Shown here one piece after another: positions 9,837-52,650 of a DNA stretch of 64,000 nucleotides (position 1 is its first letter; every line of letters begins with the position of its first letter). The DNA comes from a virus. A program made the translations under genes and the position numbers. The notes under the pieces are model-generated. The model was not told the origin of the DNA and ran no database searches. It saw nothing but the letters and a program-made list of their open reading frames with translations. The stretch lies in the IMG/VR virus record IMGVR_UViG_3300032296_003821, positions 1 to 64,000 of that record; one strand, written 5' to 3'.

Positions 9837-9854
9837 TTTAATATTTATAAACAT

Positions 9855-12442: not shown

Positions 12443-12468
12443 CGCCATATTTATAATAAAATATATAA

Positions 12469-24831: not shown

Positions 24832-25581
24832 ATGATAAGCCTGGTTCAATTGTTAAAGGAGGTTCAAACCCAACCTAAAGCCATTTTGATGGCAGGTCCT
24901 GCGGGCGCAGGAAAATCCTATACACTTAACCAATTAGGTCTTCAAGGCTTTACTACAATTAATGTAGATGATGATTTTGAAGAACTCTTACAAAAAGAAC
25001 TAGGCAAATCAGACTTTGCTTCAATGTCTCCCGAAGAACTTTCCATTGCTGCTAAAATGATGGGTAAGGCTAGAGCTACAACTAAAGAAAAAGAGTTGTT
25101 AGCTACCACTAATCTGAACAATATCATTGTTGATGGAACTGGTGCCTCATATAAGGTAGTGGCAAAGAAAAAGGAAGAACTTGAAAACATGGGTTATGAT
25201 GTCTTCATGATTCTAATTTATGTTTCACCGATGACTTCGCTGACTCGTAACGCTCAACGTGGTAGAAGTTTACCTACAAGCGCAGTATTGAAAAGCTGGG
25301 CTAATGTAGTTAACAATATTGAACCATACAGACAATTATTTGGAAATAATATAGTTGTTATCAACAACGACCCTTCAGACGCTAATAAAACATTTGATTC
25401 TGAAGCTATTCAAAAATTATTTCCTATGCCAAAAGGAAAAGAAAAATCTCCTGAGGAAATAGCAAAAATTAAAGCCGAAAGAGAAGCAACTAATCAACAA
25501 ATCCAAGCTTTACTCCAAAAAGAACCTGAATTTGATTCAATGGAGGTAGCAAAAAGTAAAGTAAATGAATTCACTCGTTAA
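24832..25581 (+). CDS. P-loop kinase (zeta toxin/AAA_33 family) with N-terminal leader
   Basis: AGPAGAGKS, IN.DD, IIVDGTG, RN..R.R; leader MISLVQLLKE; ATACGTAT at 24820-24827. Confidence 0.85.
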   Translation: MISLVQLLKEVQTQPKAILMAGPAGAGKSYTLNQLGLQGFTTINVDDDFEELLQKELGKSDFASMSPEELSIAAKMMGKARATTKEKELLATTNLNNIIVDGTGASYKVVAKKKEELENMGYDVFMILIYVSPMTSLTRNAQRGRSLPTSAVLKSWANVVNNIEPYRQLFGNNIVVINNDPSDANKTFDSEAIQKLFPMPKGKEKSPEEIAKIKAEREATNQQIQALLQKEPEFDSMEVAKSKVNEFTR

Positions 25582-27262
25582 GTCACTTATACAACCTATT
25601 TTAGAACAAGAAAAACAAAAAATTGCTCTTGTTCCTGGTGGATTTAAACCACCTACAGTGGGTCATTTCTCTTTAGTTGATGAAGTAGCTAAAAACCCAA
25701 ACATTGATAAAGTACTTGTTTTAATCGGTCATAAAAACCGAGACGGTGTCTCTAAAATAGAAAGTAAAAAAATATGGGATATTTACAAAAAATATCTCCC
25801 TTCAAACGTTGAAATCCAAATCTCAGATAATTCTTCTCCAATAGCAGATGTCGCCTCAATAATCAAAAACAATCCAGACACTATGTTTTATCCTGTAGTA
25901 GGAATTCGAGGTGAAATGGATTTAGGTGATCTAAAACGCTTTGATAGCTTAAAAGGAAAATACGATAATTTCCAAACCATTGTAATCAAATCAGAAGAAG
26001 GTGAAAATCGTGTTAGCGGTACAAATACACGTGCTGCTTTAATTGGTGGAGAAAAAGAAAGATTCCAATCATATCTTCCAACTGAACTTTCAGATGAAGA
26101 AAAAGAAGAAGTTTGGTCTATTCTCCAAAAAACACCTATTGAAGAAATGTATGCTGAACCTAGTGAGTTTAGCTACCCCCCAATGATTAAATCACTTACA
26201 GAATATATGTTAGATAAAGGTATGAATATTCGTCCTTTACCTAAAGTAAAATTTGTAAACGATGATGCTGAAAATGCTAAAAATTTCTTCGGTAAAACAG
26301 CATATTATAATCCGAATGAACGCGTTATAGTACTTTATACTATGGGTCGTCATCCTAAAGATGTTATGCGTTCTTATGCACATGAAATGATCCACCACAT
26401 GCAAAACTGTGATGGTCGTTTGGAAGGTATTACCACTCAAAATACAAACGAGGAAGGTGATTTACCTGAAATCGAAAGAGAAGCATACGAAAAAGGAAAT
26501 ATGACTTTCCGAAATTGGACAGATACACTTACTGAAGGTGTACTTGGAAATAAAATAGTATGTGATAATTGTGGATGGAGTTGGAAAATAGTAGATGGTG
26601 GAGATGATTTATATATTTGCCATAAGTGTGGGCATGACAATACTCCAATGTCTTTAAATGAAGGCCGTTACGATAAAATATCAAATCAAATATCCTCTGC
26701 TATTTTTAAACAATGGAGAGAAGATATTAACAATGGTGCTAAAGCATCTCGTTTAGAGCAATCATTCCCGTTTGGAGACGAAGAAATTTCAATAGACGCT
26801 AACATCTCAGTTGTTCCTGGTTTAGGAAAATTAAATGTAGATGGTGGTGCTGATGATACTGAAGATTATATCCAAGTACGTTTTGAAATTGATCCTGAAA
26901 AACTCCCTGAATTTTGGGAAGAAATTTCAATGAATTTAAAAGATGTTATCCGTCATGAAATTGAACATTTAACTCATGGTGAAGGATTTACCTCCAACCC
27001 AAGTAAAACGATGGAAGATGATATGTTTATCCGTCAAATGATAGACATGGAAATGTTACCTAGAGCAGATTATTTTAAACTTGAAAAAGAAATAGATGCT
27101 AATTTGCAAGGAATGTATTTTCGCGCTAAAAAAGAAAAACGTCCATTTGGAGATGTAATCAACACGTATTTAGATGCTCAAGATATTACACCTGATCAAA
27201 AAGAAGAAATAATGGATCTTTGGAGACGTAGGCTACCTGCATTAAATTTGCCAAAATTCTAA
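25565..27262 (+). CDS. HxGH-type nucleotidyltransferase fused to two HExxH metallopeptidase-like modules and a Zn ribbon
   Basis: PGGFKPPTVGH and VSGT..R; AHEMIHH...E.EAY; CDNCG...CHKCG; RHEIEH...E.DA. Confidence 0.8.
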   Translation: MNSLVKSLIQPILEQEKQKIALVPGGFKPPTVGHFSLVDEVAKNPNIDKVLVLIGHKNRDGVSKIESKKIWDIYKKYLPSNVEIQISDNSSPIADVASIIKNNPDTMFYPVVGIRGEMDLGDLKRFDSLKGKYDNFQTIVIKSEEGENRVSGTNTRAALIGGEKERFQSYLPTELSDEEKEEVWSILQKTPIEEMYAEPSEFSYPPMIKSLTEYMLDKGMNIRPLPKVKFVNDDAENAKNFFGKTAYYNPNERVIVLYTMGRHPKDVMRSYAHEMIHHMQNCDGRLEGITTQNTNEEGDLPEIEREAYEKGNMTFRNWTDTLTEGVLGNKIVCDNCGWSWKIVDGGDDLYICHKCGHDNTPMSLNEGRYDKISNQISSAIFKQWREDINNGAKASRLEQSFPFGDEEISIDANISVVPGLGKLNVDGGADDTEDYIQVRFEIDPEKLPEFWEEISMNLKDVIRHEIEHLTHGEGFTSNPSKTMEDDMFIRQMIDMEMLPRADYFKLEKEIDANLQGMYFRAKKEKRPFGDVINTYLDAQDITPDQKEEIMDLWRRRLPALNLPKF

Positions 27263-27271
27263 CTTTACAAA

Positions 27272-27799
27272 ATGCCAAATTTATTAGATTTATACGAAGC
27301 AATCAAACCAAAATATCTCATTTTTTGTGATATGGATGGTGTATTAGTTGACTTTGATAAAGGATATGAAGAACTAACTGGTAAAAGTACAAAACACCAT
27401 GACGTTCAAGATAAAAACGATTTCTGGAGACTATTAGATAAAAGTCTTGAAGAAAAAGGTCTAGAAGAATATGATTATTGGGTAAATTTGCCTTGGATGC
27501 CTGATGGTAAAACCCTTTGGAACTATATTTCCCCATATAAACCATATGTTTTAACAGCCCCTTCATTAGACCCAGGTTCTAAAGTAGCAAAACGTGAATG
27601 GGTAGAAAAAGAATTACCTGAGGCAAAAAATGTATACTTTAGAAAAGCAGCTCTTAAACCAGAATTTTCAGGTAAAAATCGTATTTTGATAGACGATAGA
27701 GAAGATACTATTGAGGGTTGGATTGCTAAAGGAGGCATCGGTATCCACCATACTTCAGCAGCTAATACTATTAAACAATTAAAAGATTTAGGCTTATAA
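27272..27799 (+). CDS. HAD-family 5'(3')-nucleotidase/phosphatase
   Basis: DMDGVLVDF, LT, K..W, LIDD, W...GG.GI. Confidence 0.88.
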   Translation: MPNLLDLYEAIKPKYLIFCDMDGVLVDFDKGYEELTGKSTKHHDVQDKNDFWRLLDKSLEEKGLEEYDYWVNLPWMPDGKTLWNYISPYKPYVLTAPSLDPGSKVAKREWVEKELPEAKNVYFRKAALKPEFSGKNRILIDDREDTIEGWIAKGGIGIHHTSAANTIKQLKDLGL

Positions 27800-28371
27800 T
27801 GGCAGATTCAGTTTTAAAAAAAGAATTCCAAAAACGTGATGTAGAACGTTTACGTAACCTTGTAAAAGGTAAACATGGTGACCGTACTACTATGGGAATT
27901 GGTTATAGTGGTGAAGTAAGAGAAGATCACAAAGAAGGCGATGTTTGGGAAGAAAAAGGTAAAACTTGGACTATCCGAGATGGCATTAAAGAAAATATTA
28001 CTAAGCTAGATAAAATAAAAAAAGTAGCTGTTCCATTATTTTGTCCTAAATGCAAACAAGTAATGGATAAACAGTTAGATCCATTTTATTTTAAAGCATA
28101 TGGTGAATGTTTGGATTGTAGAGCCAAAACAGAAACCCAGATGAAAATTGCTGGTACTTGGCAAGATTATGTTAATCAAACATTTAATACTGAAATTGAT
28201 CAACAAATACAAGAATATAAAAATTGGTTTGAAAATATCTTAGCTGATACAGCAGATGGATATGTTTCTGAAAATGGTGAAGTACAAAAATGGGTCGGAG
28301 GAATAGACAAAGAACGTGCCCAAGAGTCTTTAGATGATGTAGTTAAATATTTAAATTCACTAAAAAAATAA
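27799..28371 (+). CDS. Zn-finger-containing hypothetical protein
   Basis: CPKC...CLDC; KEGDVWEE.GK.W motif. Confidence 0.75.
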   Translation: MADSVLKKEFQKRDVERLRNLVKGKHGDRTTMGIGYSGEVREDHKEGDVWEEKGKTWTIRDGIKENITKLDKIKKVAVPLFCPKCKQVMDKQLDPFYFKAYGECLDCRAKTETQMKIAGTWQDYVNQTFNTEIDQQIQEYKNWFENILADTADGYVSENGEVQKWVGGIDKERAQESLDDVVKYLNSLKK

Positions 28372-28997
28372 TGGAAATTTTTACTATGTTTACAACTATA
28401 ATTGTAGCATTAATCACAGCTGTGGTTGGTCCTATTGTAGTTAATTGGGTAAAACTTAAAATGGAGAAAAAAGAAGATAAAACTCCTGTACGTGAGGCCC
28501 TTGAAACTTCTAACTTAATAGAAGATCAATTAGATGCCATAATGGAAGAACTTGATTGTGATCGTATTTGGTTAGCCCAATTTCATAATGGAGGACATTT
28601 TTACCCTACAGGTAAATCTATTCAGAAGTTTTCATTTTTTCATGAAAAAACATCCCCGAATACCCCAAATATTCAACATACATTCCAAAATATCCCAGTA
28701 TCTCTATTCCCTAGAGTATTAGCTAAAATTTATAAAGACACAGAATTAGCTATTGATGATGTAAGTACAGCTGAAGACACATATGGTTTAGAACATTTAA
28801 CTCTACAATTTGGAACTAAATCTATTTGTATGCTTGGCTTGTATAGTTTAGATGATCATTTAATTGGTGTGTTAGGTATATCATTTAAAGAACCACATCA
28901 CCTAGTAAGAGATGAATGGTCTTTTATCAGACAGAAAACAGGAGTGATAGGAACACTACTTTCCGAATATTTATACACAAATAACAAGAAGAAATAA
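28371..28997 (+). CDS. TM plus GAF-like domain protein, candidate T4 gpT-like holin
   Basis: N-terminal TM helix, then L.CDRIW..QFHNG...IGVLGISF GAF-like pattern. Confidence 0.55.
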   Translation: MEIFTMFTTIIVALITAVVGPIVVNWVKLKMEKKEDKTPVREALETSNLIEDQLDAIMEELDCDRIWLAQFHNGGHFYPTGKSIQKFSFFHEKTSPNTPNIQHTFQNIPVSLFPRVLAKIYKDTELAIDDVSTAEDTYGLEHLTLQFGTKSICMLGLYSLDDHLIGVLGISFKEPHHLVRDEWSFIRQKTGVIGTLLSEYLYTNNKKK

Positions 28998-29587
28998 TGG
29001 ATAATTTTGACTTAAAAAAATTCTTAAAGGAAAGCAAAGCCATTGAGAACTTAAATCCTTCTATTAAAGCCATAAACGAAGGCGAAGCCGCTTACGAATA
29101 TGAAAAAGGTAAGAAAGAAGGAGAAGAAATCGAAAAGAAAAAAATGACCAAAGAGGCAATGAAAAAACAAATCAAAGATATGATTGTTGCTGAATTAGAT
29201 GGTGCCGCTGTTGCAGCTGAAGACTATGACCCAGTTTACGAAGACAATGACCCAGGAGAAGAAGAAGCAGATATGATGGATGCTTATGCTGATGGTGGGT
29301 TTTTAGATGAAGCTAAAAAAGATAAAGAAGAAGACGTTGAAGACGTTGAAGTAACTGACACTGAAGAAGAAATGCCTGCCGATGAAGAAATGCCTGCTGA
29401 AGAAGCACCTGCTGGTGGTTTAGAAGATATCGCTGCTGACATGGAAGGTACTGAAGGTGATCTTATGGATCATCTTATGAAAGCATTCCAGATTGCAAAA
29501 GGAATGGGTAATGAAAAACTTGAAACACAAGTCGGAAACACACTTAAATTTTTCGTTAGCGAATATATTGGTGGTGGAGAAGGCTAA
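28997..29587 (+). CDS. acidic putative internal head/prohead core protein
   Basis: Leader MDNFDLKKFLKE; very E/D-rich; ATATTTAT at 28967-28974. Confidence 0.65.
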   Translation: MDNFDLKKFLKESKAIENLNPSIKAINEGEAAYEYEKGKKEGEEIEKKKMTKEAMKKQIKDMIVAELDGAAVAAEDYDPVYEDNDPGEEEADMMDAYADGGFLDEAKKDKEEDVEDVEVTDTEEEMPADEEMPAEEAPAGGLEDIAADMEGTEGDLMDHLMKAFQIAKGMGNEKLETQVGNTLKFFVSEYIGGGEG

Positions 29588-29616
29588 TATTTAATAATCT
29601 ATAATTAATAAAATCT

Positions 29617-29787
29617 ATGAACACAACACAACTTTTAGACGCAATCAAAGAACAAGTTGCTATTATGGAAGCTGAGCATGCTAAAACATCTAAAGCAGCT
29701 CGCGGACGTGCACGTAGTGCAGCTAATAGTATTAAAAAACTTGCAGCAGATTTCAAAAAGACATCAACTGCAGAAGACAAAGCTTAA
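29617..29787 (+). CDS. histone H1-like protein (Hc1 family), 56 aa, not in ORF track
   Basis: MNTTQLLDAIKEQVAIMEAEHAKTSKAARGRARSAANSIKKLAADFKKTS matches the KAA..RAR......K....F.K.S pattern of bacterial Hc1. Confidence 0.8.
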   Translation: MNTTQLLDAIKEQVAIMEAEHAKTSKAARGRARSAANSIKKLAADFKKTSTAEDKA

Positions 29788-29790
29788 GAA

Positions 29791-30597
29791 ATGAAACTAC
29801 ATGAGGCATTTTCACCAGACGAATCTAAAAAAATCTATGACAATTTTTTGGCAATCGTAAATGATCCAAAACGTCGTGATAGATTAGTTAGAAAGCATGG
29901 TAAAAATGCCGAAAATGTAGCTTATGGTACTGCTGTAAATCAAGTAAAAAAACAAGCAGCCAACAACATTGAAGAACCACAACCCGAAGAAACAATGGAA
30001 AACAATAGATTGAGAGAAATGGTTATTGATGCTTTAACAGAGAAAAAATCAACAGCATTCACTTCAGAATATGATGATAAATTCACTGATAAACGTAAAA
30101 ATTTACCTGATGGATTACAAAAATCTATTTTAAAAAAACAAGGTAAATTAGAAGAAGACCTTGACCTAGGCCATACCGATGATGAACCGCATATGATTAA
30201 AGCAGAACTTTACCAAATCGGTACATATGCTTTGGAACTTTATAAAATGCTTAACAAGTTTGAAGGCCCTCAAGAAGTCGATCTTCCAGCTTGGTGGCAG
30301 TCAAAAATTACTACTGCTAAAAATATGGTTTCTTCGGCAAAACACTATCTTGATTTTGAGTTAAAAGAACCAAAACTTGATGCTATCATAAGTGCTCAAG
30401 ATAAAGAAGAAGCAATTGATGAAAAATTAAAACCTTCTATGGGTGCAGGTGCATATGTTGATGATTTTAGAAAATCTGATGCACCACAATTCAAAGGTAA
30501 ATCAAAAGCGAAAAAAAATAAAATGGCTGTAGCCGCTTATTTGTCTGCTAAAGATAAAATCAAAGAAGCTATTTTAGCTAAACTTAAAGAAAAATAA
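29791..30597 (+). CDS. putative internal head protein, modular
   Basis: Modules separated by LTE, LEE and IDE; GHTDDEPHM and LPAWWQSKI motifs; basic C-terminus. Confidence 0.65.
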   Translation: MKLHEAFSPDESKKIYDNFLAIVNDPKRRDRLVRKHGKNAENVAYGTAVNQVKKQAANNIEEPQPEETMENNRLREMVIDALTEKKSTAFTSEYDDKFTDKRKNLPDGLQKSILKKQGKLEEDLDLGHTDDEPHMIKAELYQIGTYALELYKMLNKFEGPQEVDLPAWWQSKITTAKNMVSSAKHYLDFELKEPKLDAIISAQDKEEAIDEKLKPSMGAGAYVDDFRKSDAPQFKGKSKAKKNKMAVAAYLSAKDKIKEAILAKLKEK

Positions 30598-31091
30598 TGA
30601 CACGCGAAGAACTTGTAAATAGACTCAAGGCTTTAACTAAGCAGGTGTACTCAAACATGACAGTAACACCTGAAGAGGCAGTTCAATATGATGAACTGAC
30701 CAAATTCCCTGAGCTTAAAAAAGTTATCGTTGACCTATTAACCCCAGAATATGATAGCTTTGTAGCATCAATTGATTGGGTTGCACCACGTCCTTCTACA
30801 TTTAGAATCAATTTACAAAACGGACAACTGTTTTATTTGATCTATGGTAAACGTAGTTGGATTGCACAGGTAGAAGGTAAAAAATATTACCTACTTAATT
30901 TACCTGAAGAAGAAAGAGCTGCTATGTCTATAGCAAATATTTTACGCTATGGTGCTAAAGCAGAAGAAGGAACAGAAATGGGGGCTGAAGGTGGAGCAGC
31001 TGATCTAGGAGCTGAACTCCCAGGAGCAGAAGCCCCAGCAGCAGAAACCCCACCAGCTGAAACACCAGAAGAAACACCAGCAGAAGCATAA
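30597..31091 (+). CDS. hypothetical protein with acidic Pro/Ala tail
   Basis: ORF translationally coupled (TAATG) on both sides. Confidence 0.7.
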   Translation: MTREELVNRLKALTKQVYSNMTVTPEEAVQYDELTKFPELKKVIVDLLTPEYDSFVASIDWVAPRPSTFRINLQNGQLFYLIYGKRSWIAQVEGKKYYLLNLPEEERAAMSIANILRYGAKAEEGTEMGAEGGAADLGAELPGAEAPAAETPPAETPEETPAEA

Positions 31092-32089
31092 TGGATATTT
31101 TAGAACAATTTATACGAAGCGTATCTTACAAATTTCCAAAAGGATACCCTGATATGAAGGATCCTAAGGATGTTGAATTTCTTAATAAACTAATAAGTGA
31201 AGTAGTTGATCCTAAAATGGTTATCAACGAACAACAAACCGAATACGATGATCGTATTAAAGAAGCTTTAGGTGTAGAACAAATTCCAATATGTCAAACA
31301 CCACTTGAGATAGGAAAAGATTTTAATTTAAGTGGAAAAGATGCTGAAATTTGGAAAAAATTATTTGGCGTTAAACCAATAGCAGCCAGAACAGGTAAAC
31401 AAACCGCTGGATCTGGTAATGGTGAAGTTTCTACATATTGGGCATTTCAATACAACAAAACTGGAAAATTCCAAGTAGAAGATAGACGAGGTGCTGACAA
31501 CCCAGATTTAATAATCAACAACTTAGGTGTTGAAATTAAAGACTATGGTTCCAAAATGATTACCTTAGGTAAATTTTTTGGTGATAAAAAATCATATGGT
31601 CTTTTAAGTAACTTATTTGGATTCAAAAGCTTACTTGAAGCCCTTAAAGAAAACAAATTCCCAGAAGAATCTACAGCCAACCCAGGAACATTTAAATCTT
31701 CTGAATTAGTAGATGCTGCTCGTTTAATGTTAAGTTTCTATAAAGAAGCTAAACTAAAAGAATTTGCTGAAAAATATCAATTTGAAATAGTACTAAACCT
31801 ATTTAAACGTGTAGAAGCTATTTTAAATGAACTTCAACTTGGTTCAGGTGCATCACCAGAAGATGTAGCTGGTGGTATTTTAAAAACCATGATTAAAACA
31901 AAACTTAATAAAAAACCATTAATTGGTCAAGCTAAGGGATATGTTTTAAATGTTAATGTGACTGGTTTAGGAGATTTCGTTGAAATTACAAACGAAAAAA
32001 TAGATGCACTTAACAATGAAGATTTGTTAAATAATGTAGCTGTTACTTCATCTGAAATGAAAATGAATTTTGATGCTTTATTCAAATAA
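31091..32089 (+). CDS. putative PD-(D/E)XK endonuclease with N-terminal leader
   Basis: GNGEV...PDL.....VEIK catalytic-like pattern; leader ending VINE. Confidence 0.55.
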   Translation: MDILEQFIRSVSYKFPKGYPDMKDPKDVEFLNKLISEVVDPKMVINEQQTEYDDRIKEALGVEQIPICQTPLEIGKDFNLSGKDAEIWKKLFGVKPIAARTGKQTAGSGNGEVSTYWAFQYNKTGKFQVEDRRGADNPDLIINNLGVEIKDYGSKMITLGKFFGDKKSYGLLSNLFGFKSLLEALKENKFPEESTANPGTFKSSELVDAARLMLSFYKEAKLKEFAEKYQFEIVLNLFKRVEAILNELQLGSGASPEDVAGGILKTMIKTKLNKKPLIGQAKGYVLNVNVTGLGDFVEITNEKIDALNNEDLLNNVAVTSSEMKMNFDALFK

Positions 32090-32090
32090 T

Positions 32091-32969
32091 ATGGACAAGA
32101 CTCGCCTTAAAAAACTCATCCAAGAAGTATATCACCATGTTACAGAAGAAAAATGTAGCTGTGGTTGTAACACTTGTGAAAACGTAGGTAACGCTGGCGT
32201 TATCTTAAACGAAAGTATAGCTCCAAGGGAAATATTATCGGAAAATCTGCGTTATCACGTGGAAAATAAACTCCCACTTACTGAAAATACGTTCCGATAT
32301 GGTTCCAAATCGTTTCTTAATTTATGGGCAGAAGCTCGTTCATTGTATTTACGTGAAGTAATTCATGTTAACGATGATGATAAAGAAATTTTAGAGGAAA
32401 CTGATCTTGGAAACTATGGAATGTATGAAGGTGTTAAAGTACCTTTAGACTTACCTATGTTAGAGGAAGGTGAAGAAGAATTAAATATAGGAGATATCAT
32501 TGAAATTAACCCTAAAGAATTTCCTAACTTTGAATTCCCATATGGCACTGAAGGTGAAATTGAAGATATAAACAAAGCAGATTACGCTAGTGACGATTTA
32601 GTCTATACAGTTAAAATCAAATATATTGATAGTCAAGGAGATGAAGCTAATACTTTACATATTGAAAATTCATCTCAATATTTGAATGAAACTGAGAAAA
32701 AGAAAACACCACCAATTGGAAAACCAAAACGTGGTGGATCTAAAAAATTCTACGTTTACGTTAGAGATAAAGGAAAAGTTAAAAAAGTATCTTTCGGACA
32801 AGCAGGTATGTCTGCTAAAATAAATGACCCAAAAGCACGCCGTGCATTTGCTGCTCGTCATGATTGTAAAAATAAAAAAGACAGAACAAAACCATCTTAT
32901 TGGTCATGTCGCTTACCAAGATATGCTAAATTACTTGGATTAAAATCATCTTTTTCAGGATTCTGGTGA
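32091..32969 (+). CDS. putative head protein with basic Cys/His C-terminal domain
   Basis: Leader MDKTRLKKLIQE; KKFYVYV...KKVSFG...FAARH.C...YWSCR. Start moved to 32091. Confidence 0.7.
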   Translation: MDKTRLKKLIQEVYHHVTEEKCSCGCNTCENVGNAGVILNESIAPREILSENLRYHVENKLPLTENTFRYGSKSFLNLWAEARSLYLREVIHVNDDDKEILEETDLGNYGMYEGVKVPLDLPMLEEGEEELNIGDIIEINPKEFPNFEFPYGTEGEIEDINKADYASDDLVYTVKIKYIDSQGDEANTLHIENSSQYLNETEKKKTPPIGKPKRGGSKKFYVYVRDKGKVKKVSFGQAGMSAKINDPKARRAFAARHDCKNKKDRTKPSYWSCRLPRYAKLLGLKSSFSGFW

Positions 32970-33376
32970 TGGATAGATTAGATAAACTTATCAACGAAGT
33001 TCTTTCTGAAGAAAAGAAAAAACGTGACAGATGTCTTCGTATTGCAGACCGCAAATACGACAAACCATCTGCTTACAAATCTGGCGCTGTTGTAAAATGC
33101 CGCAAAGGAATGATTTGGAAAGGCTTAAAAGAAGAAGTTATTCAAGAAAAAGTAAAAGAAACCCTCCGCACTTGGTTCAAACGTAAAGGAACACCTGGTA
33201 AAAAAGGTGGATGGGTTGATTGTAATGCACCAATCAGAAAAGATGGTAAAGTAACAGGATATAAAGCATGTGGACGTGAAGAAGGTGAAAAACGTTCAAA
33301 ATATCCATCATGTCGTCCTACACCTGCTCAATGTAAAACACCTGGTAAAGGTAAAAAATGGGGAAAAACAAAATGA
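32969..33376 (+). CDS. basic Cys-rich putative DNA-binding head protein
   Basis: Leader MDRLDKLINEVLSE; PSAY.SG..VKCR, L..WF, WVDC, CGR, YP.CRP. Confidence 0.7.
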   Translation: MDRLDKLINEVLSEEKKKRDRCLRIADRKYDKPSAYKSGAVVKCRKGMIWKGLKEEVIQEKVKETLRTWFKRKGTPGKKGGWVDCNAPIRKDGKVTGYKACGREEGEKRSKYPSCRPTPAQCKTPGKGKKWGKTK

Positions 33377-33618
33377 TTAGTTTATTAGAGTTATTGAAAC
33401 AACAGGAATCACCTGAATCTCCACCTTACATGTATTCACCTGTGGGGTTTGGATGCCATGTTTGTAAATTTTATTATATGGAAGACGACAAACATATGTG
33501 CGGCAATTCATATTACAAACATTATATGAAAACTAATGAACTTATAGATGAAGAAGGAAATCAAATTAAAGATCCTTCAAAATGGTGTTCAAATTGGTTT
33601 TTACCAAAAGATGAATGA
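33373..33618 (+). CDS. small HiPIP-like four-Cys protein with MISL..LLK leader
   Basis: CHVCKFY...C...P.KWCSNW. Start moved to 33373 (ATGA overlap). Confidence 0.6.
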   Translation: MISLLELLKQQESPESPPYMYSPVGFGCHVCKFYYMEDDKHMCGNSYYKHYMKTNELIDEEGNQIKDPSKWCSNWFLPKDE

Positions 33619-33875
33619 GACCCTATATAGACATAGAAGTTACTGACAAATATATTATTCGCGAATTTAGCGAAAATATAGACCCAATTGAACTATTATG
33701 GCATCGTGATGATGAAGATAGAACAGTTGAAATCCTAGAAGATACAGACTGGAAACTCCAATTAGAAGATCAGTTGCCTACCTCCCTAAAAGAACGTATA
33801 TTTATACCAAGACACGAATGGCATAGAGTCATTAAAGGAACTGGTACTTTAAAATTAAAAATACATAAATCATGA
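33615..33875 (+). CDS. cupin-fold protein
   Basis: WHRD.E.R and IFIP..EWHRVIKG. Confidence 0.7.
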   Translation: MRPYIDIEVTDKYIIREFSENIDPIELLWHRDDEDRTVEILEDTDWKLQLEDQLPTSLKERIFIPRHEWHRVIKGTGTLKLKIHKS

Positions 33876-34141
33876 AGCTAGACGGCTTAAAACAATTGGT
33901 AAAAGAAGAACTTAAACGTGCTTTAAATGAAGAACTTAAAGACCAAGTTCCTACTGAACCTGGAAAATATAAAGTAGAATATACTATTGATGGTGGTTCA
34001 GGTGGTGATGATGAAATAGTAACTATCACTCAAGAAGATATAGATAATGCTGAGGGCTCAACAAAAATATGGCAATATAAAATTGATAACCATCTTTTTG
34101 GACGTGGTGATAGAGTAATGAGTGTTAAAAAAATAACATAA
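33872..34141 (+). CDS. small protein with LKQLVKEE leader
   Basis: MKLDGLKQLVKEELKRALNEE. Confidence 0.7.
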   Translation: MKLDGLKQLVKEELKRALNEELKDQVPTEPGKYKVEYTIDGGSGGDDEIVTITQEDIDNAEGSTKIWQYKIDNHLFGRGDRVMSVKKIT

Positions 34142-34142
34142 A

Positions 34143-34871
34143 ATGAATAAAGAAACTTTACGTATGCAAATGTTGGCTGGTATTATTACAGAGAGTCAAT
34201 ATAAAGAAAAAATGAATGAAAATAATGTTGGGAGTGTTGATGTTTCTCTAGTAAAAGATTTAATGAATGATCCCAATGTTAAAAAAATAACTGCTAAACT
34301 TAAAGCGGATCCTGAAGCACTTAAAAAAACCATTAAATTTGTTTCAACATATGCTAATAAAGAAGTCCCATTAAATGAAAATGATAAAATAACTAATTTA
34401 ATGATGCAAAAACTAGCAGTAGATGAAATTCCATGGAAAGAATTTGTTAAAAAGGGAGATATATTATACTTAGGTGATAAACCTCTTGAATCTTACACAA
34501 CAGAAGAATTAGCTAGTTTAATTAAAGCTTCTCGAGCTGATAAAGAAGCTCAAACAGCAGCAGAAAAAGCAAGAGAAGAAAAAGCAAGAGAAGAGGCTAA
34601 AAAACAGCTTCAAATGAATAAAAAAGATAAATTATATTCTATTGCTAGTTGGTTAGGATTTCCTGCTCTTTTAGGATCAATGATGGCTGGATTTGTAGAT
34701 TCTGCTGCACCCGGAGGAGTAGTGTTAGTAAGTGCTTTAACGGCGGCATTGCTTGGTTTAGGAGTTGGAGCTCTTGCTACTAAAGGATTTAAAGAAAAAG
34801 TATTACATGAAGAAGATATGAGTATTGAAGACCAAATTCAAAAAATTATTGATTTAGGAAAATCAATGTAA
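34143..34871 (+). CDS. protein with RMQxLAG leader and C-terminal TM hairpin
   Basis: MNKETLRMQMLAGIITE; two hydrophobic helices near the C-terminus. Confidence 0.7.
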   Translation: MNKETLRMQMLAGIITESQYKEKMNENNVGSVDVSLVKDLMNDPNVKKITAKLKADPEALKKTIKFVSTYANKEVPLNENDKITNLMMQKLAVDEIPWKEFVKKGDILYLGDKPLESYTTEELASLIKASRADKEAQTAAEKAREEKAREEAKKQLQMNKKDKLYSIASWLGFPALLGSMMAGFVDSAAPGGVVLVSALTAALLGLGVGALATKGFKEKVLHEEDMSIEDQIQKIIDLGKSM

Positions 34872-34921
34872 TATATAGACAGATTCATAGCCTGTCGACT
34901 TAAAAAAAAATTAATAGAGCT

Positions 34922-34955
34922 GTGGCCTAATCTTTGGATTAGGTCACTTTTTTTT
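34922..34955 (+). terminator. intrinsic terminator
   Basis: 11-bp stem GTGGCCTAATC/GATTAGGTCAC followed by T8. Confidence 0.85.
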
Positions 34956-34964
34956 GTATCTTTA
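34933..34964 (+). promoter_or_regulatory. Bacteroidota sigma-A-type promoter overlapping the terminator
   Basis: TTTG-N20-TATCTTTA. Confidence 0.65.
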
Positions 34965-34979
34965 AATATAAAATAGAAT

Positions 34980-36275
34980 ATGGACAAGAAAATAGTAATA
35001 GTAGGAGCCGGAGTAGCAGGTGTGAATGCGGCAACAAAATTAGTGGATAACGGTTATCCTGGAGAATTAATCACAGTAATTGATATGGGTAAAGATCCAT
35101 ACAAACGTAAACCTGAAGAAGTAATGACAGGTTTTCTTGGTGCTGGAGGTTGGTCAGATGGTAAATTGACTTATCATACTGCAATTGGAGGACAGTTATC
35201 AAAATACTGTGGTGATGATAAAGCAATGGAATTGATGGATCAAGTGATTACCAATTTCAAACGTTTTCACCCTAAACCTGAAGAAGTACAATGTTCAAAC
35301 CCTGTTGAGGAACCTGAATTTATCAAACCATATTTTGGTCTACGTTTATTCCCAGTATGGCACGTTGGAACAGATTATCTATCTGAAATTGCTAAAAACT
35401 GGTACGATTATTTAGTATCTAAAGGTGTTGTATTTCATTGGGAAACTAAAGTAGAATCTATTGATTTTAAAAATAACCGAGCTTACACACATAATGCTGA
35501 TATCACATATGATGAACTTATTTTCGGTGTAGGCAAATCAGGTATTGACTTTGCTCAAGAATTAGCCCAAGAATATAAACTCCCAGATGAACCTAAATCA
35601 GTTCAAATCGGAGTACGTTTTGAAGCACCACAAGAACACTTTCAAAAACTAATCGATATTTCATATGACTTTAAGTTATATAGAAAATTTGATGATGAAG
35701 GAGTATCGTTACGTTCATTCTGTACAAACAATAATGCCGCTTATGTTGCTGTAGAAGAAACATATGGAGATCACAGTTACAATGGTCACGCTAAGAAAGA
35801 TGAAGCGTATAGAAACAACATGACTAACTTCGGTATATTGATGGAAATCAATGGTATTGAAGATCCATTTACTTGGTCACGAGAAGTTGTAAATAAACTA
35901 CAATCAAATGGAACTGGTTTGTATTATAGTCCATCTCGTCAACCATCTACTACATCTGAAGGTAATAATGTAACTGCTACTCAAATTAGTTTAGATACAT
36001 TAACTCATGTTGTAGAACCTGCTATGGGTGGTTATTTTAAGTATGTAATGGATTTTATTATGGATATGAAAAAAGTATTTCCAACACTGCAAAATGATTG
36101 GGGTATGTATATTCCTGAAGTAAAATACTTGTCACCTGAAGTGAAAGTAGATTATAGTAATCTTAGTTTAGTAGATTATCCTAACGTACATTTCGTAGGT
36201 GATGCTTTGAGTGCACGTGGTATTACAGTGTCAGGAGCGCAAGCAATTTATGTAGCAGAAAGTTTTTTAAAATAA
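34980..36275 (+). CDS. FAD-dependent oxidoreductase (COG2509/HI0933-like)
   Basis: IVGAGVAG, G.LGAG.WSDGKL, IGVRFE, RSFC.N, NGH, FVGD. Confidence 0.9.
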   Translation: MDKKIVIVGAGVAGVNAATKLVDNGYPGELITVIDMGKDPYKRKPEEVMTGFLGAGGWSDGKLTYHTAIGGQLSKYCGDDKAMELMDQVITNFKRFHPKPEEVQCSNPVEEPEFIKPYFGLRLFPVWHVGTDYLSEIAKNWYDYLVSKGVVFHWETKVESIDFKNNRAYTHNADITYDELIFGVGKSGIDFAQELAQEYKLPDEPKSVQIGVRFEAPQEHFQKLIDISYDFKLYRKFDDEGVSLRSFCTNNNAAYVAVEETYGDHSYNGHAKKDEAYRNNMTNFGILMEINGIEDPFTWSREVVNKLQSNGTGLYYSPSRQPSTTSEGNNVTATQISLDTLTHVVEPAMGGYFKYVMDFIMDMKKVFPTLQNDWGMYIPEVKYLSPEVKVDYSNLSLVDYPNVHFVGDALSARGITVSGAQAIYVAESFLK

Positions 36276-36280
36276 AAGTT

Positions 36281-36811
36281 ATGAGAATAGGATTTTGTGG
36301 AACAATTTCAGTTGGTAAAACAACATTAGTTAATGCATTAAGAGAATTACCTGAATTTGCTGATTATGAATTTAGAACAGAGCGTTCAAAATACTTACGT
36401 GATTTAGGTATTCCATTAAACACTGACTCAACATTAAAAGGTCAATTTGTATTTTTGGCTGAACGTTCAAGTGAATTATATTTAGAAAATGTAATTACTG
36501 ATCGTACTGTTATTGATGTAATGGCATTTACGCGTTTAGCTGATTCAATTCCATATTATATAGGTGATACATTAAACGAAGTTGCTGCTCATTTATTGCG
36601 CGAATATGACTATATTTTCTATGTTTCACCTGAGGGTGTTGAATTAGAAGATAATGGAGTGCGTGCTATAGATGAAAAATATCGAATGGAAATTGACCAA
36701 GAGATTTGTAAAATTATCGAGAAACATAAAACTAAAATCCCTCATTTCTCCAGATTATCAGGTACTACCGAGGAAAGAATCAAGAAATTGAAACAAGTAA
36801 TGGGTCTCTAA
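36281..36811 (+). CDS. NadR/AAA_28-type nucleoside/nucleotide kinase
   Basis: GTISVGKTTL, ITDRT.ID, YD..FY, EDNG.R, GTTEER. Confidence 0.85.
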   Translation: MRIGFCGTISVGKTTLVNALRELPEFADYEFRTERSKYLRDLGIPLNTDSTLKGQFVFLAERSSELYLENVITDRTVIDVMAFTRLADSIPYYIGDTLNEVAAHLLREYDYIFYVSPEGVELEDNGVRAIDEKYRMEIDQEICKIIEKHKTKIPHFSRLSGTTEERIKKLKQVMGL

Positions 36812-36833
36812 TATTTATAAATAAAATTAGACA

Positions 36834-37679
36834 ATGAAAAAATCTCGTTTACTCGAAATCATACGTGAAGAAATTAGTGCTGTTTTACATGAAGGTGAAG
36901 CAGAAGAAAAAGCAGCAAAAGCTGCTGCTATCAAAGCTACAGATTTAGAAATTAAAGCTCTAGAAAAGAAAAAAGCTGACATGATGAAAAGCGGTGTCGC
37001 TGAATCAGAAGAACTTAATGAAATTCCAGATTTCGGTGGTCGATTTGATAAGCAAGTAGCAGCAAAATATGGTGAAGAAGATACACTAGAAGCAGCTATG
37101 GAAAAAGTTGTTAACAGAACACTTTCGGATAGAGGAATATCTAAAGCAGATGTATCTAAAATGGATAAAGAAGGTTTAAAAGGTCTTTTGAAAGCTATCC
37201 GTCAACAAATTTCTGGTAAAGGTCAAACTTCTGCTGTTGCTCAAGCTTTGAAAAAACAAACAGAATTTGATGATTCAGGAAGCAAATTACAAGATAACCA
37301 AACAAATAATGCTATCTTAAAAGCATTAGGTTTAAAAGAACCAGGACAACGTGGTAGAAAAGCTGCTGAAAAACCTGCTGAAGCACCTAAAGCTAAAAAA
37401 GAAACAACTCCAAAAGCAGCATCTAAAGCAGAACCTGCAGATGATGAAGATGCAGCAGCAACAAAAGCAGCAGCTAGCGATTCAACAGCAAAAGAATTAG
37501 CTTCTACCCCAGAAGAAAAGAAAATTAAATTCAATCAATTCCTAGCTTCAGTTAAGAAAAATAAAGACGATAAAGCTAAAATTGATGGTATTTTAAAACT
37601 AGCAAAAGATAAATTCAAATTCGCTAAATCAATGATGGACGATTTGAAACGTGCTGCTGGTAGAGAAGTTGAAGCATGA
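36834..37679 (+). CDS. K/A/E-rich putative internal head protein
   Basis: Leader MKKSRLLEIIREEISAVLHE; GQRGRK; ATATTTAT at 36811-36818. Confidence 0.65.
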   Translation: MKKSRLLEIIREEISAVLHEGEAEEKAAKAAAIKATDLEIKALEKKKADMMKSGVAESEELNEIPDFGGRFDKQVAAKYGEEDTLEAAMEKVVNRTLSDRGISKADVSKMDKEGLKGLLKAIRQQISGKGQTSAVAQALKKQTEFDDSGSKLQDNQTNNAILKALGLKEPGQRGRKAAEKPAEAPKAKKETTPKAASKAEPADDEDAAATKAAASDSTAKELASTPEEKKIKFNQFLASVKKNKDDKAKIDGILKLAKDKFKFAKSMMDDLKRAAGREVEA

Positions 37680-38041: not shown

Positions 38042-38393
38042 AATTTGTTTTTCACACGATAAAGCACGAGCTATTGCAATTGACCTTACACGAGGTGATT
38101 CTGCTATTGCTGAATTGAAAGTTGTAAATAAAATGGTATGGCAGTTGAATGAAAAAATTGACGCCAAAGATAGCACAATCAGCATTTACGTATCTAAAGA
38201 AAAAAATTATCTTAAGCAAGTAGCAGACTATGAAAAGATTGTTACTGTACAAGATACTGTAATTAAAGGACTAGAAAAAGACGTTAAAGATCTTACTCGC
38301 AAAAACGCTAACTTAAAGAAAGGTATTAAATGGTTAGGTGGAGGATTCGTGGCTTCCCTACTTGTTATTCTTACATTGGTGGCAGTTAAATAA
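37965..38393 (+). CDS. signal peptide, coiled coil and C-terminal TM protein, spanin-like partner
   Basis: Signal-like N-terminus and C-terminal TM WLGGGFVASLLVILTLVAV. Confidence 0.55.
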   Translation: MATKLKILLVLLILSSSSFSQTVTDKICFSHDKARAIAIDLTRGDSAIAELKVVNKMVWQLNEKIDAKDSTISIYVSKEKNYLKQVADYEKIVTVQDTVIKGLEKDVKDLTRKNANLKKGIKWLGGGFVASLLVILTLVAVK

Positions 38394-39994
38394 TGGAAGA
38401 AAAAAGTCTAAAACAAGTCGTCCGCGAGGAGTATATAAAGTGCGCCCAATCCCCGGCATATTTTATGAAAAAATACTGCCAGATCCAGCATCCAAAGCGT
38501 GGACGAATGCCTTTTAACCTTTATCCATTCCAAGAAAAAGTACTTACTCTATTCCAAGAGAACCCATACTCAATAGTACTTAAATCTCGCCAGTTAGGTA
38601 TCTCAACATTAGCAGCAGGTTATTCACTGTGGATGATGATCTTCCATGAAGATAAAAACATCCTTTGTATTGCAACAAAACAGGAAACCGCTAAAAACAT
38701 GGTTACTAAGGTAAAATTTATGTATGAAAGCTTACCTTCCTGGTTGAAATTTGCAAACAAACCTGACGAAGCAAATAAATTAACACTTCGACTGCCAAAT
38801 GGATCTCAAATTAAAGCAGTTGGTGCATCAGCAGATGCAGGTCGATCAGAAGCCGTTTCATTGTTGATTATAGATGAGGCCGCCTTTATTCACAATATTG
38901 GTGAGATTTGGGCCTCAGCTCAACAAACCTTAGCTACCGGTGGTGGATGTATTGCATTATCTACACCTTATGGTACAGGTAACTGGTTCCATCAAACGTG
39001 GGTTGCTGCTGAAATGGGTGACAATAGTTTCTTACCTATTAGATTACCTTGGGAAGTTCACCCTGAACGAGATCAATCATGGAGAGACCAACAAGATAAA
39101 GATTTAGGTATTCGAATGGCAGCACAAGAATGTGACTGTGATTTTACAACATCGGGTGATACAGTATTCACCCCTGAAGACATTACTTTTTACGAACAAT
39201 TTCACGTGAAAGAACCTCTAGAAAAACGTGGTATTGATCAAAACCTATGGATTTGGGAACCAGCGGATTATTCGAGGAGTTATCTGATCGTAGCTGATGT
39301 AGCGCGTGGCGATGGCAAGGATTATTCGGCGTTTCACATCTTTGATGTCGAAACATTCACTCAGGTAGGTGAATATAAGGGCCAAATTAATACAAAAGAT
39401 TATGGACATTTACTAGTAAGCATTGCAACAGAATACAACAATGCCTTATTAGCAGTCGAAAATCAAAGCGTAGGTTGGTCAACCGTACAAACCATTTTAG
39501 ACAGAGGTTATCAAAATTTCTATTACTCACCAAAAGGTGGAGCAAATAATGTAGATTCTTTCTTTGATCCCTACATGGACCATAGCAAAATGACCCCAGG
39601 CTTTACAATGTCAAATACAACTCGTCCTATAGCAATTGGAAAATTCCAAGAAGCTGTTATGGATAAAGGAGTAGTTTTCCATTCAGCTCGCCTATTAGAG
39701 GAAATGAAAGTATTTATATGGAGAAACGGTAGAGCAGAAGCACAAGCAGGATACAACGATGACCTAGTAATGGCATTTTGTATTGGTTGTTACTTACGTG
39801 AAACCGCATTTAAACTTAGAACAAGTAATATGGAAATGACTAAAAGTATGTTAAATGGTATTGGTAATTCCAAAACCGCATATGCTGGAGGTTATTCCAA
39901 TGGGCCTAGTTATGCTGATAAGTATAACAATAACCCATTTCAAATAGACAACCCTTACTCAAACGGCAAAGAAGACATTTCTTGGCTTTTATAA
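38393..39994 (+). CDS. terL: terminase large subunit (T4 gp17-like)
   Basis: YPFQ, KSRQLGIST (Walker A), IIDEAAF (Walker B), STP.G, DVARG.G.DYS, DDLVMA. Confidence 0.97.
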   Translation: MEEKSLKQVVREEYIKCAQSPAYFMKKYCQIQHPKRGRMPFNLYPFQEKVLTLFQENPYSIVLKSRQLGISTLAAGYSLWMMIFHEDKNILCIATKQETAKNMVTKVKFMYESLPSWLKFANKPDEANKLTLRLPNGSQIKAVGASADAGRSEAVSLLIIDEAAFIHNIGEIWASAQQTLATGGGCIALSTPYGTGNWFHQTWVAAEMGDNSFLPIRLPWEVHPERDQSWRDQQDKDLGIRMAAQECDCDFTTSGDTVFTPEDITFYEQFHVKEPLEKRGIDQNLWIWEPADYSRSYLIVADVARGDGKDYSAFHIFDVETFTQVGEYKGQINTKDYGHLLVSIATEYNNALLAVENQSVGWSTVQTILDRGYQNFYYSPKGGANNVDSFFDPYMDHSKMTPGFTMSNTTRPIAIGKFQEAVMDKGVVFHSARLLEEMKVFIWRNGRAEAQAGYNDDLVMAFCIGCYLRETAFKLRTSNMEMTKSMLNGIGNSKTAYAGGYSNGPSYADKYNNNPFQIDNPYSNGKEDISWLL

Positions 39995-41902: not shown

Positions 41903-41942
41903 GGAAATTCTATATATTTATAAATAAACAAATATTACCAGA

Positions 41943-42806
41943 ATGCAAGTTAAACATTCAAAGTATAAAAACACGGGTATCCTCTTTGAACTTTTGGTTC
42001 GCCAGATCACCACAGACACACTGGATGGAAAGGATTCTCCGGCTAAAGATATACTTAAAAAATATTTCGTTAAGTCGGAATTGGGTCGTGAGTATAAGTT
42101 ATATGAAACGTTACTTAAAAGAACATCATTAACTGAAGGTAAAGCAAACGTTGTAGTAGATACATTAATCGAATCTTCTAAAACATTAAATAGAGGAGCT
42201 ATTAAACGTCAGAAATACAATCTGATCAGCGAGATCCAAAAATATTATGATTTAAACGAGTTTTTTAATCATAAGCTACCAAACTATAAAATGTTTGCTG
42301 CATTCTATACGTTGACTGAAATTGCAAACGCCCAACACACTGTTGACCCTGATCAAGCTATCAACAATAAAGTAACTATTTTAGAGCATTTAACTGCTGC
42401 TAAAATTGAAGAAAATAAAGTACGTGATGAGGTAATGGGTGAATTTGAAAAAGCCGATAAAGACGTTCGTTTTTTAGCATATAAAATGGTATTAGAAAGC
42501 TTTAATACAAAATATAACGACCTACATCCACGTCAAAAAGAAATTCTTAAAGAATTTATTACTTCGGTTGACAATAAACCACGTTTAAAAGAATTTTACA
42601 CTGCCAAGGTAGTTGAAATTAAAGAAGAATTAGCTAAACTCAATGCTAAAACTAAAAACGAAGTAACCAAAATTAAAATCAACGAAATCATCAACATTAT
42701 CCAGATACCTGCTAAAACAGCTAAAATTACTGATAATGATTTAGTTGACTTGTTACAGTATTATGATTTAATCAACGAGTTAGAAACTGTAAATGGAAAA
42801 AATTAA
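41943..42806 (+). CDS. conserved helical head-assembly protein
   Basis: KHSKYKNTGILFELL N-terminus; lies between portal and protease; ATATTTAT at 41914-41921. Confidence 0.65.
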   Translation: MQVKHSKYKNTGILFELLVRQITTDTLDGKDSPAKDILKKYFVKSELGREYKLYETLLKRTSLTEGKANVVVDTLIESSKTLNRGAIKRQKYNLISEIQKYYDLNEFFNHKLPNYKMFAAFYTLTEIANAQHTVDPDQAINNKVTILEHLTAAKIEENKVRDEVMGEFEKADKDVRFLAYKMVLESFNTKYNDLHPRQKEILKEFITSVDNKPRLKEFYTAKVVEIKEELAKLNAKTKNEVTKIKINEIINIIQIPAKTAKITDNDLVDLLQYYDLINELETVNGKN

Positions 42807-43296
42807 AGAAATAATTCGCAAGAAACTAGCAGAAATGAGCGCTACCGGAATGGGTGGTGCTTCGTTTTCTCCTGGTCAAGGAATGAATTATGCTACTCCA
42901 AAAGCATTTAAAAAAACAAAAAATATTAAAGAAGGTCCTGGAGCTAGTTTAGGAATGGGTCCAAGTGCTGGTTCCGAAGGTGTAAAAGATAATGCTTACG
43001 TAAAACAATTCAAATATAAACTAGTACCTAAGAAAATTAAAGGATCTGGTTTAGAAGTTAAGCAACTTTGGGAAGATGAAACATTAAACGAAATGAATGA
43101 CGTTCAAAAAAGACGCATTGCTTCGTTAGACGAGATTGAAAAATTAATGAACGAAATTCAACCACTTGTTTCAAACGCAAAAAATGAGACAATTGAATTA
43201 TATGGTGGAAATGCTGGTTCATATGATATCAATAAACCAATCGAAATAGTTTTAAGCTATTTAAAAGAAATAAAACAACTCTTATCAGAAAAATAA
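42793..43296 (+). CDS. putative prohead core/internal protein
   Basis: Leader MEKIKEIIRKKLAE; YATPKAF; several LxE sites. Confidence 0.65.
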   Translation: MEKIKEIIRKKLAEMSATGMGGASFSPGQGMNYATPKAFKKTKNIKEGPGASLGMGPSAGSEGVKDNAYVKQFKYKLVPKKIKGSGLEVKQLWEDETLNEMNDVQKRRIASLDEIEKLMNEIQPLVSNAKNETIELYGGNAGSYDINKPIEIVLSYLKEIKQLLSEK

Positions 43297-45144: not shown

Positions 45145-45777
45145 ATGAGCAAACAACTTTTAATAGAAACCAGACATTTTGATCCAAAACCAATGAAATT
45201 GGTTGAGGGTATGAGCAAAAGCGGTAACGTTTTTGTTGAAGGGATATTGGCTACTGTAGAGGTAAAAAATGGAAATGGTCGCTATTACAAACGTGAATTG
45301 TGGGAACGCGAAATTGATAACTTTACACGCAAAATCCAAATGAAATCTACCGAAACGGTAGGTGAGTTGGATCATCCTGATTCGCAAGTAATCAACCTTA
45401 AAAACGCATCTCATGCTATACGTGAAGTATGGTGGAGAGGGGATGAAATTTGGGGTAAAGTAGAAATATTCTCTGATATGGGTGATTTAGGCACTACATC
45501 AGGTCGTATTGCAGGTGCATTAGTCAAAAATGGCTTAATCATTGGTATTTCTTCTCGTGGAATGGGTTCCCTAAAACAAATGGGTGAGGTAATGGAAGTA
45601 CAAGACGACTTTGAATTACTTACTTGGGATTTAGTTTCCAACCCATCTAACCCAGATTCATGGATGAAAAATGGTGCTTTAAATGAATCAAGATCAACAT
45701 ATTTGCATGATTACGCACGTACAAATTCAATAGTTACTGAAATATTATGTGCTAAAGGTACATGTCCGATATTTTAA
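45145..45777 (+). CDS. prohead maturation protease (T4 gp21-like)
   Basis: N.NGRYY, GELDHP, GISSRGMGS, D.VS.PS. Confidence 0.95.
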   Translation: MSKQLLIETRHFDPKPMKLVEGMSKSGNVFVEGILATVEVKNGNGRYYKRELWEREIDNFTRKIQMKSTETVGELDHPDSQVINLKNASHAIREVWWRGDEIWGKVEIFSDMGDLGTTSGRIAGALVKNGLIIGISSRGMGSLKQMGEVMEVQDDFELLTWDLVSNPSNPDSWMKNGALNESRSTYLHDYARTNSIVTEILCAKGTCPIF

Positions 45778-49775: not shown

Positions 49776-49798
49776 CCATATTTATAAATAAAAGATAA

Positions 49799-50287: not shown

Positions 50288-50306
50288 TATTTATAAATAA
50301 AAGAAA

Positions 50307-52624: not shown

Positions 52625-52650
52625 ATTCATATTTATAACAAAATAGAAAC

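Follow-up and report, generated by a model that had tools for sequence, protein, structure and literature searches.

In a 64,000-nucleotide stretch of viral DNA (the window: positions 1 to 64,000 of the 94,994-bp IMG/VR contig IMGVR_UViG_3300032296_003821, which is rated 59% complete), a set of otherwise unrelated proteins begins with similar short leaders ending at a hydrophobic-X-Glu sequence, and we find that the core set of these leaders probably represents capsid-targeting propeptides of the phage T4 type, expanded here into several classes. The source is an uncultured T4-like phage of aquatic Bacteroidota, with a GC content of ~33%, nearly all genes on the + strand and a proteome rich in Lys, Glu, Ile and Leu. 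Among cultured phages its nearest relative is Flavobacterium phage immuto, whose capsid protein is 57% identical and which carries the same tags, followed by Microcystis phage Mel-JY01 and Rhodothermus phage RM378. The contig was compared with three near-complete relatives, G001 (complete), G002 and immuto, and with 2188 open reading frames (ORFs) from 160 related loci.

A preliminary description of this DNA had quoted eleven such leaders together with the N-terminus of the capsid protein, and all of these are present, three of them hinging on the choice of an internal ATG (ORFs are named by their start positions: 32091 rather than TTG 32070 or ATG 32073, 32969 rather than GTG 32966, and 33373 rather than ATG 33358). 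Orthologues back the chosen starts of 32091 and 33373. We searched for a strict motif, Phi-x-x-Phi-Phi-[KRQN]-E (Phi, hydrophobic), starting within the first 8 residues, and took the expected number from the rate of the same pattern at internal positions. This motif was found at the N-termini of 8 of the 105 contig ORFs, where 0.31 would be expected (p ~1e-9), and the bodies of these proteins have no detectable similarity, in agreement with the claim that similar leaders sit on unrelated proteins. The ORFs that fit are 9855, 24832, 28997, 32091, 32969, 33872, 36834 and 80956, the last beyond the window; the large terminase at 38393 fits too and is included in the count of eight. A second pattern, derived from T4 sequences, [Phi/Y]-x-x-Phi-Phi-x-E, gave nine matches against 1.64 expected (p = 4e-5). 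The bare hydrophobic-X-Glu ending, by which the leaders were originally defined, is only weakly enriched (21/102 ORFs against 14.4 expected, p = 0.046), whereas the fuller motif is strongly so. Looser variants occur at 33373, 25565, 27272 and 42793. The original estimate of a dozen or more tagged proteins is reached only if these are counted, and twelve strong cases are present in the complete relative; on the 59%-complete contig itself there are about eight.

The relatives behave in the same way. Strict-motif counts were 13 against 0.99 expected in G001, 14 against 1.44 in G002 and 7 against 0.89 in immuto, and across the ORFs of the 160 related loci the motif was N-terminal 297 times where 9.1 would be expected, on at least 35 unrelated body clusters, as anticipated if leaders are swapped between unrelated domains. 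A hidden Markov model (HMM) built from the leaders of the 36834 family alone proved too narrow, its next-best match being 33872, in register, with an i-E of only 0.29, and therefore patterns with internal-position controls were used. The likeness of the leaders to the scaffold N-terminus was weak (p = 0.006 for 9855, 0.014 for 24832 and 0.019 for 28997, among 17 tests), and was not used as evidence.

The leaders can be sorted into a class I 10-mer, a class II 12- to 20-mer, classes III and IV, and a copy of the scaffold C-terminus, and the same leader is repeatedly found in front of different bodies. Taken from residue 25 onward, the bodies of 67 proteins from the contig and the three near-complete relatives form 48 clusters. 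The class II leader of 33872 resembles those of 9855, 80956 and 36834, the class III leader of 28997 is also carried by four immuto proteins, and in G002 (contig 97666-100793, loci L194-L195) five tandem genes share one class II leader; BLAST detected no similarity at E < 1e-3 among the bodies of the four class II proteins, the five tandem G002 genes or the four immuto proteins. This one-leader, different-bodies arrangement is the one seen at the polymorphic internal-protein loci of T-even phages, and the G002 array is a candidate hyperplastic internal-protein locus. The canonical class I tag of the kinase encoded at 24832 is likewise found on many unrelated proteins in the related loci. Among 24 orthologues of 36834, residues 1-20 are nearly invariant and the body is hypervariable from residue 21. 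The leader of 9855 is kept in its orthologues from G001, G002 and immuto, the orthologues of 32969 retain theirs, and one orthologue of 33373 begins with a canonical class I leader. The N-terminus of 25565 is also conserved in orthologues and lies outside the strict motif.

The conserved residues of the leaders correspond to those that matter in T4. Across 41 different kinase orthologue sequences, L4, L7 and E10 of the leader are invariant and L8 is present in 40; these positions coincide with residues 4 and 7 of the T4 IPIII capsid-targeting sequence (CTS), which mutagenesis has assigned to targeting, and with residues 8 and 10, assigned to processing (PMC9026906). The phage also encodes a T4-type head module, in the order large terminase, gp20-type portal, three unassigned ORFs, S77 protease, scaffold-like gene and gp23-type capsid protein. 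The gp21-like protease that had been named at 45145 is indeed recognised as an S77 peptidase by Pfam, and its own N-terminal L-I-E has a counterpart at residue 9 of T4 gp21 (PMC9026906). The maturation site of T4 gp23 (L-T-E|A) aligns with V-V-E|Q at residue 61 of the capsid protein, which reads V-T-E|A or V-S-E|A in relatives, and the capsid protein is thus predicted to have an N-terminal propeptide with a Phi-x-E maturation site. A Phi-x-E sequence by residue 14 is present in 5/6 head-module proteins (the portal-to-capsid interval; the protease is one of the five) compared to 26/99 other ORFs (p = 0.008), and in the orthologues of 42793 L-K-E is conserved at residue 14. The scaffold-like protein at 45966 gave no family match in Pfam and PHROG profile searches. 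The motif at its C-terminus was seen again at the start of 34143 and a few other proteins and nowhere else, and there I-T-E follows it.

Some of the leader genes also share a putative late promoter with the virion genes. Most virion genes (those for sheath, tube, head and fibres) are preceded at 5-25 nt by the promoter-like motif (A/T)ATATTTATAA, similar to the T4 late promoter TATAAATA, and the motif also precedes the leader genes 9855 (directly upstream), 36834 and 80956. Across four genomes this late-type motif is 3-fold commoner upstream of leader genes than elsewhere (11/42 versus 82/788, Fisher p = 0.004). A variant with one mismatch accompanies the kinase gene and is kept in two relatives. 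A second motif, AAATAAA(A/G)GTT, was seen directly before the ATG of several non-structural genes (window 2438-2448, 3020-3030, 4210-4220 and 36270-36280; contig 93347-93357), and may be another promoter class or a translation signal.

In AlphaFold2 (AF2) models of the kinase and of the HAD enzyme at 27272, a predicted nucleotidase, the leader is an add-on outside the conserved fold. The kinase model has a mean predicted local distance difference test score (pLDDT) of 88 overall and 53 for residues 1-10, with a helix at 4-11 followed by a strand at 16-21; for the HAD enzyme the values are 93 overall and 76 for the leader, with a helix at 4-11 and a strand at 16-19. In both, the leader Glu lies 5-6 residues ahead of the first strand. 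The best structural match of the kinase, found with VIA-align, was the kinase domain of bacterial polynucleotide kinase Pnkp (4jt2_B, Z 16.8, root-mean-square deviation 3.0, 163 residues aligned), followed by zeta toxin (Z 14.4), T4 polynucleotide kinase (PNK, Z 13.3) and adenylate kinases, and the protein could be an RNA or DNA end kinase. Nearly all of these matches align from model residue 12-16 onward, also when low-confidence residues are not trimmed, and residue 1 of T4 PNK aligns with model residue 14. A sequence alignment with PezT had raised the idea that the leader is the first helix of zeta toxins, which we rejected because the structure puts model residue 12 at chain residue 29-30. 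Similarly, VIA-align placed residue 3-4 of cytosolic 5'(3')-deoxyribonucleotidase (cdN) at residue 12-14 of the HAD model, with homologues aligning from 11-14. Thus homologues of both enzymes align after the leader, and the concern that the leaders might be integral parts of the folded domains was not borne out. The contrast that had been drawn with leaderless proteins also held: in the FAD enzyme (34980) and in the AAA_28 kinase (36281), strand 1 stands at the very start of the sequence. A protein-database search with the kinase returned 1422 matches, and the 120 listed are all metagenomic relatives with at least 68% identity, with no cellular homologues among the matches listed. The HAD enzyme matched no family in a Pfam scan, and a PDB sequence search gave a chance match only.

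From these features we infer a path of core binding, cleavage, packaging and injection. The leader would form an amphipathic helix over approximately residues 4-11, continuing to about residue 20 in class II, and during prohead assembly this helix would attach the freshly synthesised protein to the helical scaffold core. The S77 gp21-type protease would then cut after the fixed Glu (residue 10, 12 or 20, with hydrophobic P3 and P4), freeing the mature protein inside the head, where it would stay with the DNA and from which it may be ejected into the host. We hold this view less firmly for the individual enzymes: head targeting of the kinase is a tentative proposal that could easily go either way, and that of the 25565 and 27272 enzymes is doubtful. 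A further-reaching version, which we regard as speculative and rather unlikely in full, is that a leader code of at least four classes preloads the capsid with an enzyme kit and a changing set of small proteins, all injected with the DNA and acting before phage gene expression. The kit would comprise the polynucleotide-kinase-like kinase, the nucleotidyltransferase-zincin protein and the deoxyribonucleotidase, the last two of which might in some relatives arise from a single polyprotein through cleavage at the Phi-x-E joints that the fusions retain, a scheme to which we give the same low weight.

Several observations weigh against head targeting, either of the whole set or of some of its members. 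The strict pattern was fitted to the contig's own data, and the counts from the different genomes are not independent because the relatives share orthologues. Two proteins that would not be expected in heads look tagged: the large terminase fits the motif, and the N-terminus of a gp32-like single-stranded DNA-binding protein at 93880 resembles a leader. The terminase match is probably due to chance, as its motif segment falls in what we take, from the sequence of T4 gp17, to be the conserved N-terminal region of terminases. A literature search found no virion proteome, N-terminal data or cleavage assay for this phage or its relatives. Of the other S77-bearing T4-like phages, RM378, Syn9 and HTVC008M show no significant motif excess and Mel-JY01 only a 2.4-fold excess. 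Because these phages are little or not enriched, we rejected the idea that the tag is a general companion of the S77 protease; among the phages compared, strong tag expansion belongs to this lineage and T4. A primase and a nuclease precede the three enzymes in an apparent nucleotide-metabolism block, and enzymes of this kind normally have to act in the cytoplasm. The class II genes 9855 and 80956 are located in tail/baseplate modules. Finally, 25565 and 27272 are fused into a single ORF in loci L116, L119, L120, L122, L124, L126, L133 and L139, and their leader equivalents are internal linkers in the fused orthologues. The fusion junction keeps (L/M)-N-E at the position of the leader Glu of the separate nucleotidase, and the fused protein of immuto (907 residues) has an extra 280-residue N-terminal domain; the segment equivalent to the N-terminus of 25565 is internal there as well. 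The proposal that the leaders load proteins into the head is partly supported, by the modular, T4-matching tags found beside an S77 protease, and is weakened for 25565 and 27272.

The positions of the two class II genes and of the enzymes would also fit a different role, in which the leader is a docking helix for a partner outside the prohead, such as a phage or host hub protein, a chaperone, the membrane or a tail/baseplate assembly factor, and the Glu serves binding or helix capping rather than cleavage. Consistent with this, hydrophobic residues in the class II leader follow a heptad-like pattern of the kind usual in coiled coils, and low pLDDT together with high conservation indicates a partner-binding peptide, without specifying the partner. 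However, docking of this kind does not account for the coincidence of the motif with both the targeting and the processing positions of T4, for its recurrence on head-module proteins beside a conserved capsid cleavage site, or for a second tag that copies the scaffold C-terminus, and we consider it unlikely.

Less probable still is that the leaders have no shared function, and that they reflect AT-rich codon bias near start codons, the commonness of amphipathic helices at N-termini, and old duplications after which the bodies drifted too far apart to be recognised. The composition of the genome and the slight enrichment of the bare Phi-x-E ending are compatible with such an origin, as is the similarity in DNA of the tandem G002 leaders, which is that expected after recent duplication. 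In T4 itself, where as a positive control the T4-derived pattern recovers ipII, ipIII, gp24 and Alt, the N-termini show some background excess besides the known targeting sequences. (Separately, the start of T4 gene 61.1, a 54-residue protein at L164:18966-19130 on the minus strand, is very like the CTS of IPII/IPIII.) However, AT-rich control phages lack enrichment, and in the four control phages without an S77 protease the strict motif was found in 0/237 ORFs (Staphylococcus phage K), 0/94 (Cellulophaga phage phi38:1), 2/118 (Cellulophaga phage phi14:2) and 1/214 (Bacillus phage SPO1), which is no real enrichment. Furthermore, the Glu is locked in register, at residue 10 in 112 and residue 12 in 137 of the early occurrences in the related loci (249 of ~350), and the leaders sit on clearly different folds, the P-loop kinase and the HAD enzyme included. 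In distant orthologues of 32091 the conserved Cys motif comes first and a stop codon lies immediately ahead of the start, and this family has therefore gained or lost the leader. Across the kinase leaders, 4-5 synonymous codons are in use for each Leu and both GAA and GAG, about equally often, for the Glu; because the invariant residues use such varied codons, we conclude that selection acts on the leader peptide. The same codon usage bears on a third idea, that the conserved 5' gene ends act chiefly as DNA, as recombination linkers that shuffle cassettes in the way proposed for T4-type regulatory cassettes, with the peptide as a by-product: modular shuffling is documented in T4-type phages (PMC2839356) and the tandem arrays join one leader, alike in DNA, to different bodies, but the leaders of the contig differ at many synonymous sites while keeping their residues, and recombination could spread a tag yet would leave its fixed hydrophobic and Glu positions unexplained, making this very improbable. 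The comparisons thus show tags that are modular, that keep to the N-terminus and that are selected as peptides.

The T4-type propeptides that we propose agree with the CTS of T4, which is carried by IPI, IPII, IPIII, Alt and gp24 and removed by gp21, in being N-terminal tags with a 10-residue form, hydrophobic residues at 4, 7 and 8 and Glu at 10, and further in the unrelated mature parts, the tandem polymorphic loci, the S77 protease and the homologous capsid propeptide site. They differ in number, with 12 strict-motif proteins besides the terminase in the complete relative G001 compared to about five known in T4, and in falling into several classes, among them forms of 12 and 20 residues and one copied from the scaffold tail. 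Here P2 is usually Lys, Arg, Gln or Asn, a polynucleotide-kinase-like enzyme is among the candidate cargo, the host belongs to the Bacteroidota and the system is known from sequence alone. Relative to T4, the novelty lies in the scale, in the variety of tag classes and lengths, in the tag copied from the scaffold tail, in the enzymes that are candidate cargo and in the host group, and the idea extends what T-even internal proteins already show.

Short terminal peptides also send unrelated enzymes into the HK97-fold shells of encapsulins. In contrast to the tags described here, encapsulin cargo-loading peptides are usually C-terminal, uncleaved and shell-binding, and act with no scaffold or protease. 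Scaffolds of the P22 type have a C-terminal coat-binding helix, and a C-terminal scaffold motif is likewise what is reused at the start of 34143 and a few other proteins, although the copy here is N-terminal and followed by a Phi-x-E site; by this analogy the scaffold-tail tag suggests a second route into the prohead. In phiKZ, 201phi2-1 and SPN3US, a gp21-related protease (gp175 or gp245) processes many head proteins after Glu, and paralogous head proteins of giant phages can share identical N-termini (PMC5694885). The type of protease is shared with our system, as is the cleavage after Glu that we propose; however, the sites of these giant phages are A/S/G-x-E and most of their propeptides exceed 100 residues (PMC5694885), whereas all the leaders described here have Leu, Ile or Val at P3, as in T4, and measure 10-20 residues. 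Loading of varied proteins by CTS has already been proposed for T4-like phages (PMC9026906).

The features of the window are collected in Table 1. The leader-gene region, from 24832 onward, follows genes for a DnaG-type primase, a PD-(D/E)XK nuclease and a SegE-like homing endonuclease; the last, of the GIY-YIG type (window 22648-23097, Pfam 5.9e-28), lies between fibre-like genes and the primase. A basic 56-residue protein (window 29617-29787) gave a sub-threshold match to the histone H1-like family Hc1 (21.6 bits, cut-off 23.5), and its N-terminus ends I-K-E at residue 12, in a segment inside the Hc1 match. Directly before the terminase (window 37676-38393) are two small overlapping ORFs with hydrophobic N-termini, one with a coiled-coil signal, and no recognisable small terminase was found.

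Table 1 Leader genes, head-module genes and late-type motif sites (window positions unless marked)
Position	Strand	Feature	Basis or remark
9855..10190	+	111-residue protein, 20-residue class II leader (Glu at 12 and 20)	Motif match; just upstream of gp25-like baseplate gene
24832..25581	+	P-loop kinase (Zeta_toxin/AAA_33), 10-residue class I leader	Pfam match; motif match
25565..27262	+	HxGH nucleotidyltransferase-like protein with HExxH motifs, 14-residue N-terminal helix ending I-L-E; weak candidate	
27272..27799	+	5'(3')-deoxyribonucleotidase-like HAD enzyme, 9-residue leader resembling capsid N-terminus; weak candidate	
28997..29587	+	Acidic 196-residue protein, class III leader (Glu at 12), body pI 4.1	Motif match
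32091..32969	+	292-residue Cys-motif protein, 12-residue leader	Motif match
32969..33376	+	Basic 135-residue DUF5872 protein, 10-residue leader (Glu at 10 and 14), body pI 10.1	Pfam; motif match
33373..33618	+	81-residue Cys-rich protein, degenerate class I leader (Gln in place of expected Glu)	
33872..34141	+	89-residue protein, 20-residue class II leader	Motif match
34143..34871	+	242-residue protein, N-terminus copies scaffold C-terminal motif, then ends I-T-E	
36834..37679	+	281-residue Lys/Ala/Glu-rich protein, 20-residue class II leader, own late-type promoter motif	
38393..39994	+	Large terminase	Pfam Terminase_6N; strict-motif match, probably chance, outside system
40004-41902		gp20-type portal	
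42793..43296	+	167-residue protein in gp67/gp68 position (portal-protease interval)	Synteny; N-terminal helix ends L-A-E at 14
43296..45143	+	615-residue head-module protein, I-K-E at 14	N-terminus conserved in 31 loci
45145..45777	+	gp21-type prohead serine protease, L-I-E at residue 8	Pfam Peptidase_S77 3.5e-27; PHROG 207 4.7e-49
45966..47264	+	Scaffold-like protein in gp22 position, L-K-E at 10	Synteny; N-terminus conserved in 21 loci
47293..48990	+	gp23-type major capsid protein, L-L-E at residue 9, V-V-E at 61	Pfam Gp23 5.4e-75, match from residue 78
6010-6033, 9840-9854, 12445-12468, 36812-36833, 41915-41942, 49780-49798, 50290-50306, 52625-52650, 58665-58688; contig 72-86 kb		ATATTTATAA-type motif sites	

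If the tags work as they do in T4, genome or metagenome sequence could directly reveal which proteins travel in a phage head and are injected, and, if so, this readout would cover a large uncultured group of aquatic Bacteroidota phages. Head-carried injected proteins are prime candidates for anti-defence and host-takeover functions, and the tags, if they act as proposed, could be used to load foreign proteins into the capsids of non-model phages. Because the cultured relative immuto has the same tags, the idea is directly testable.

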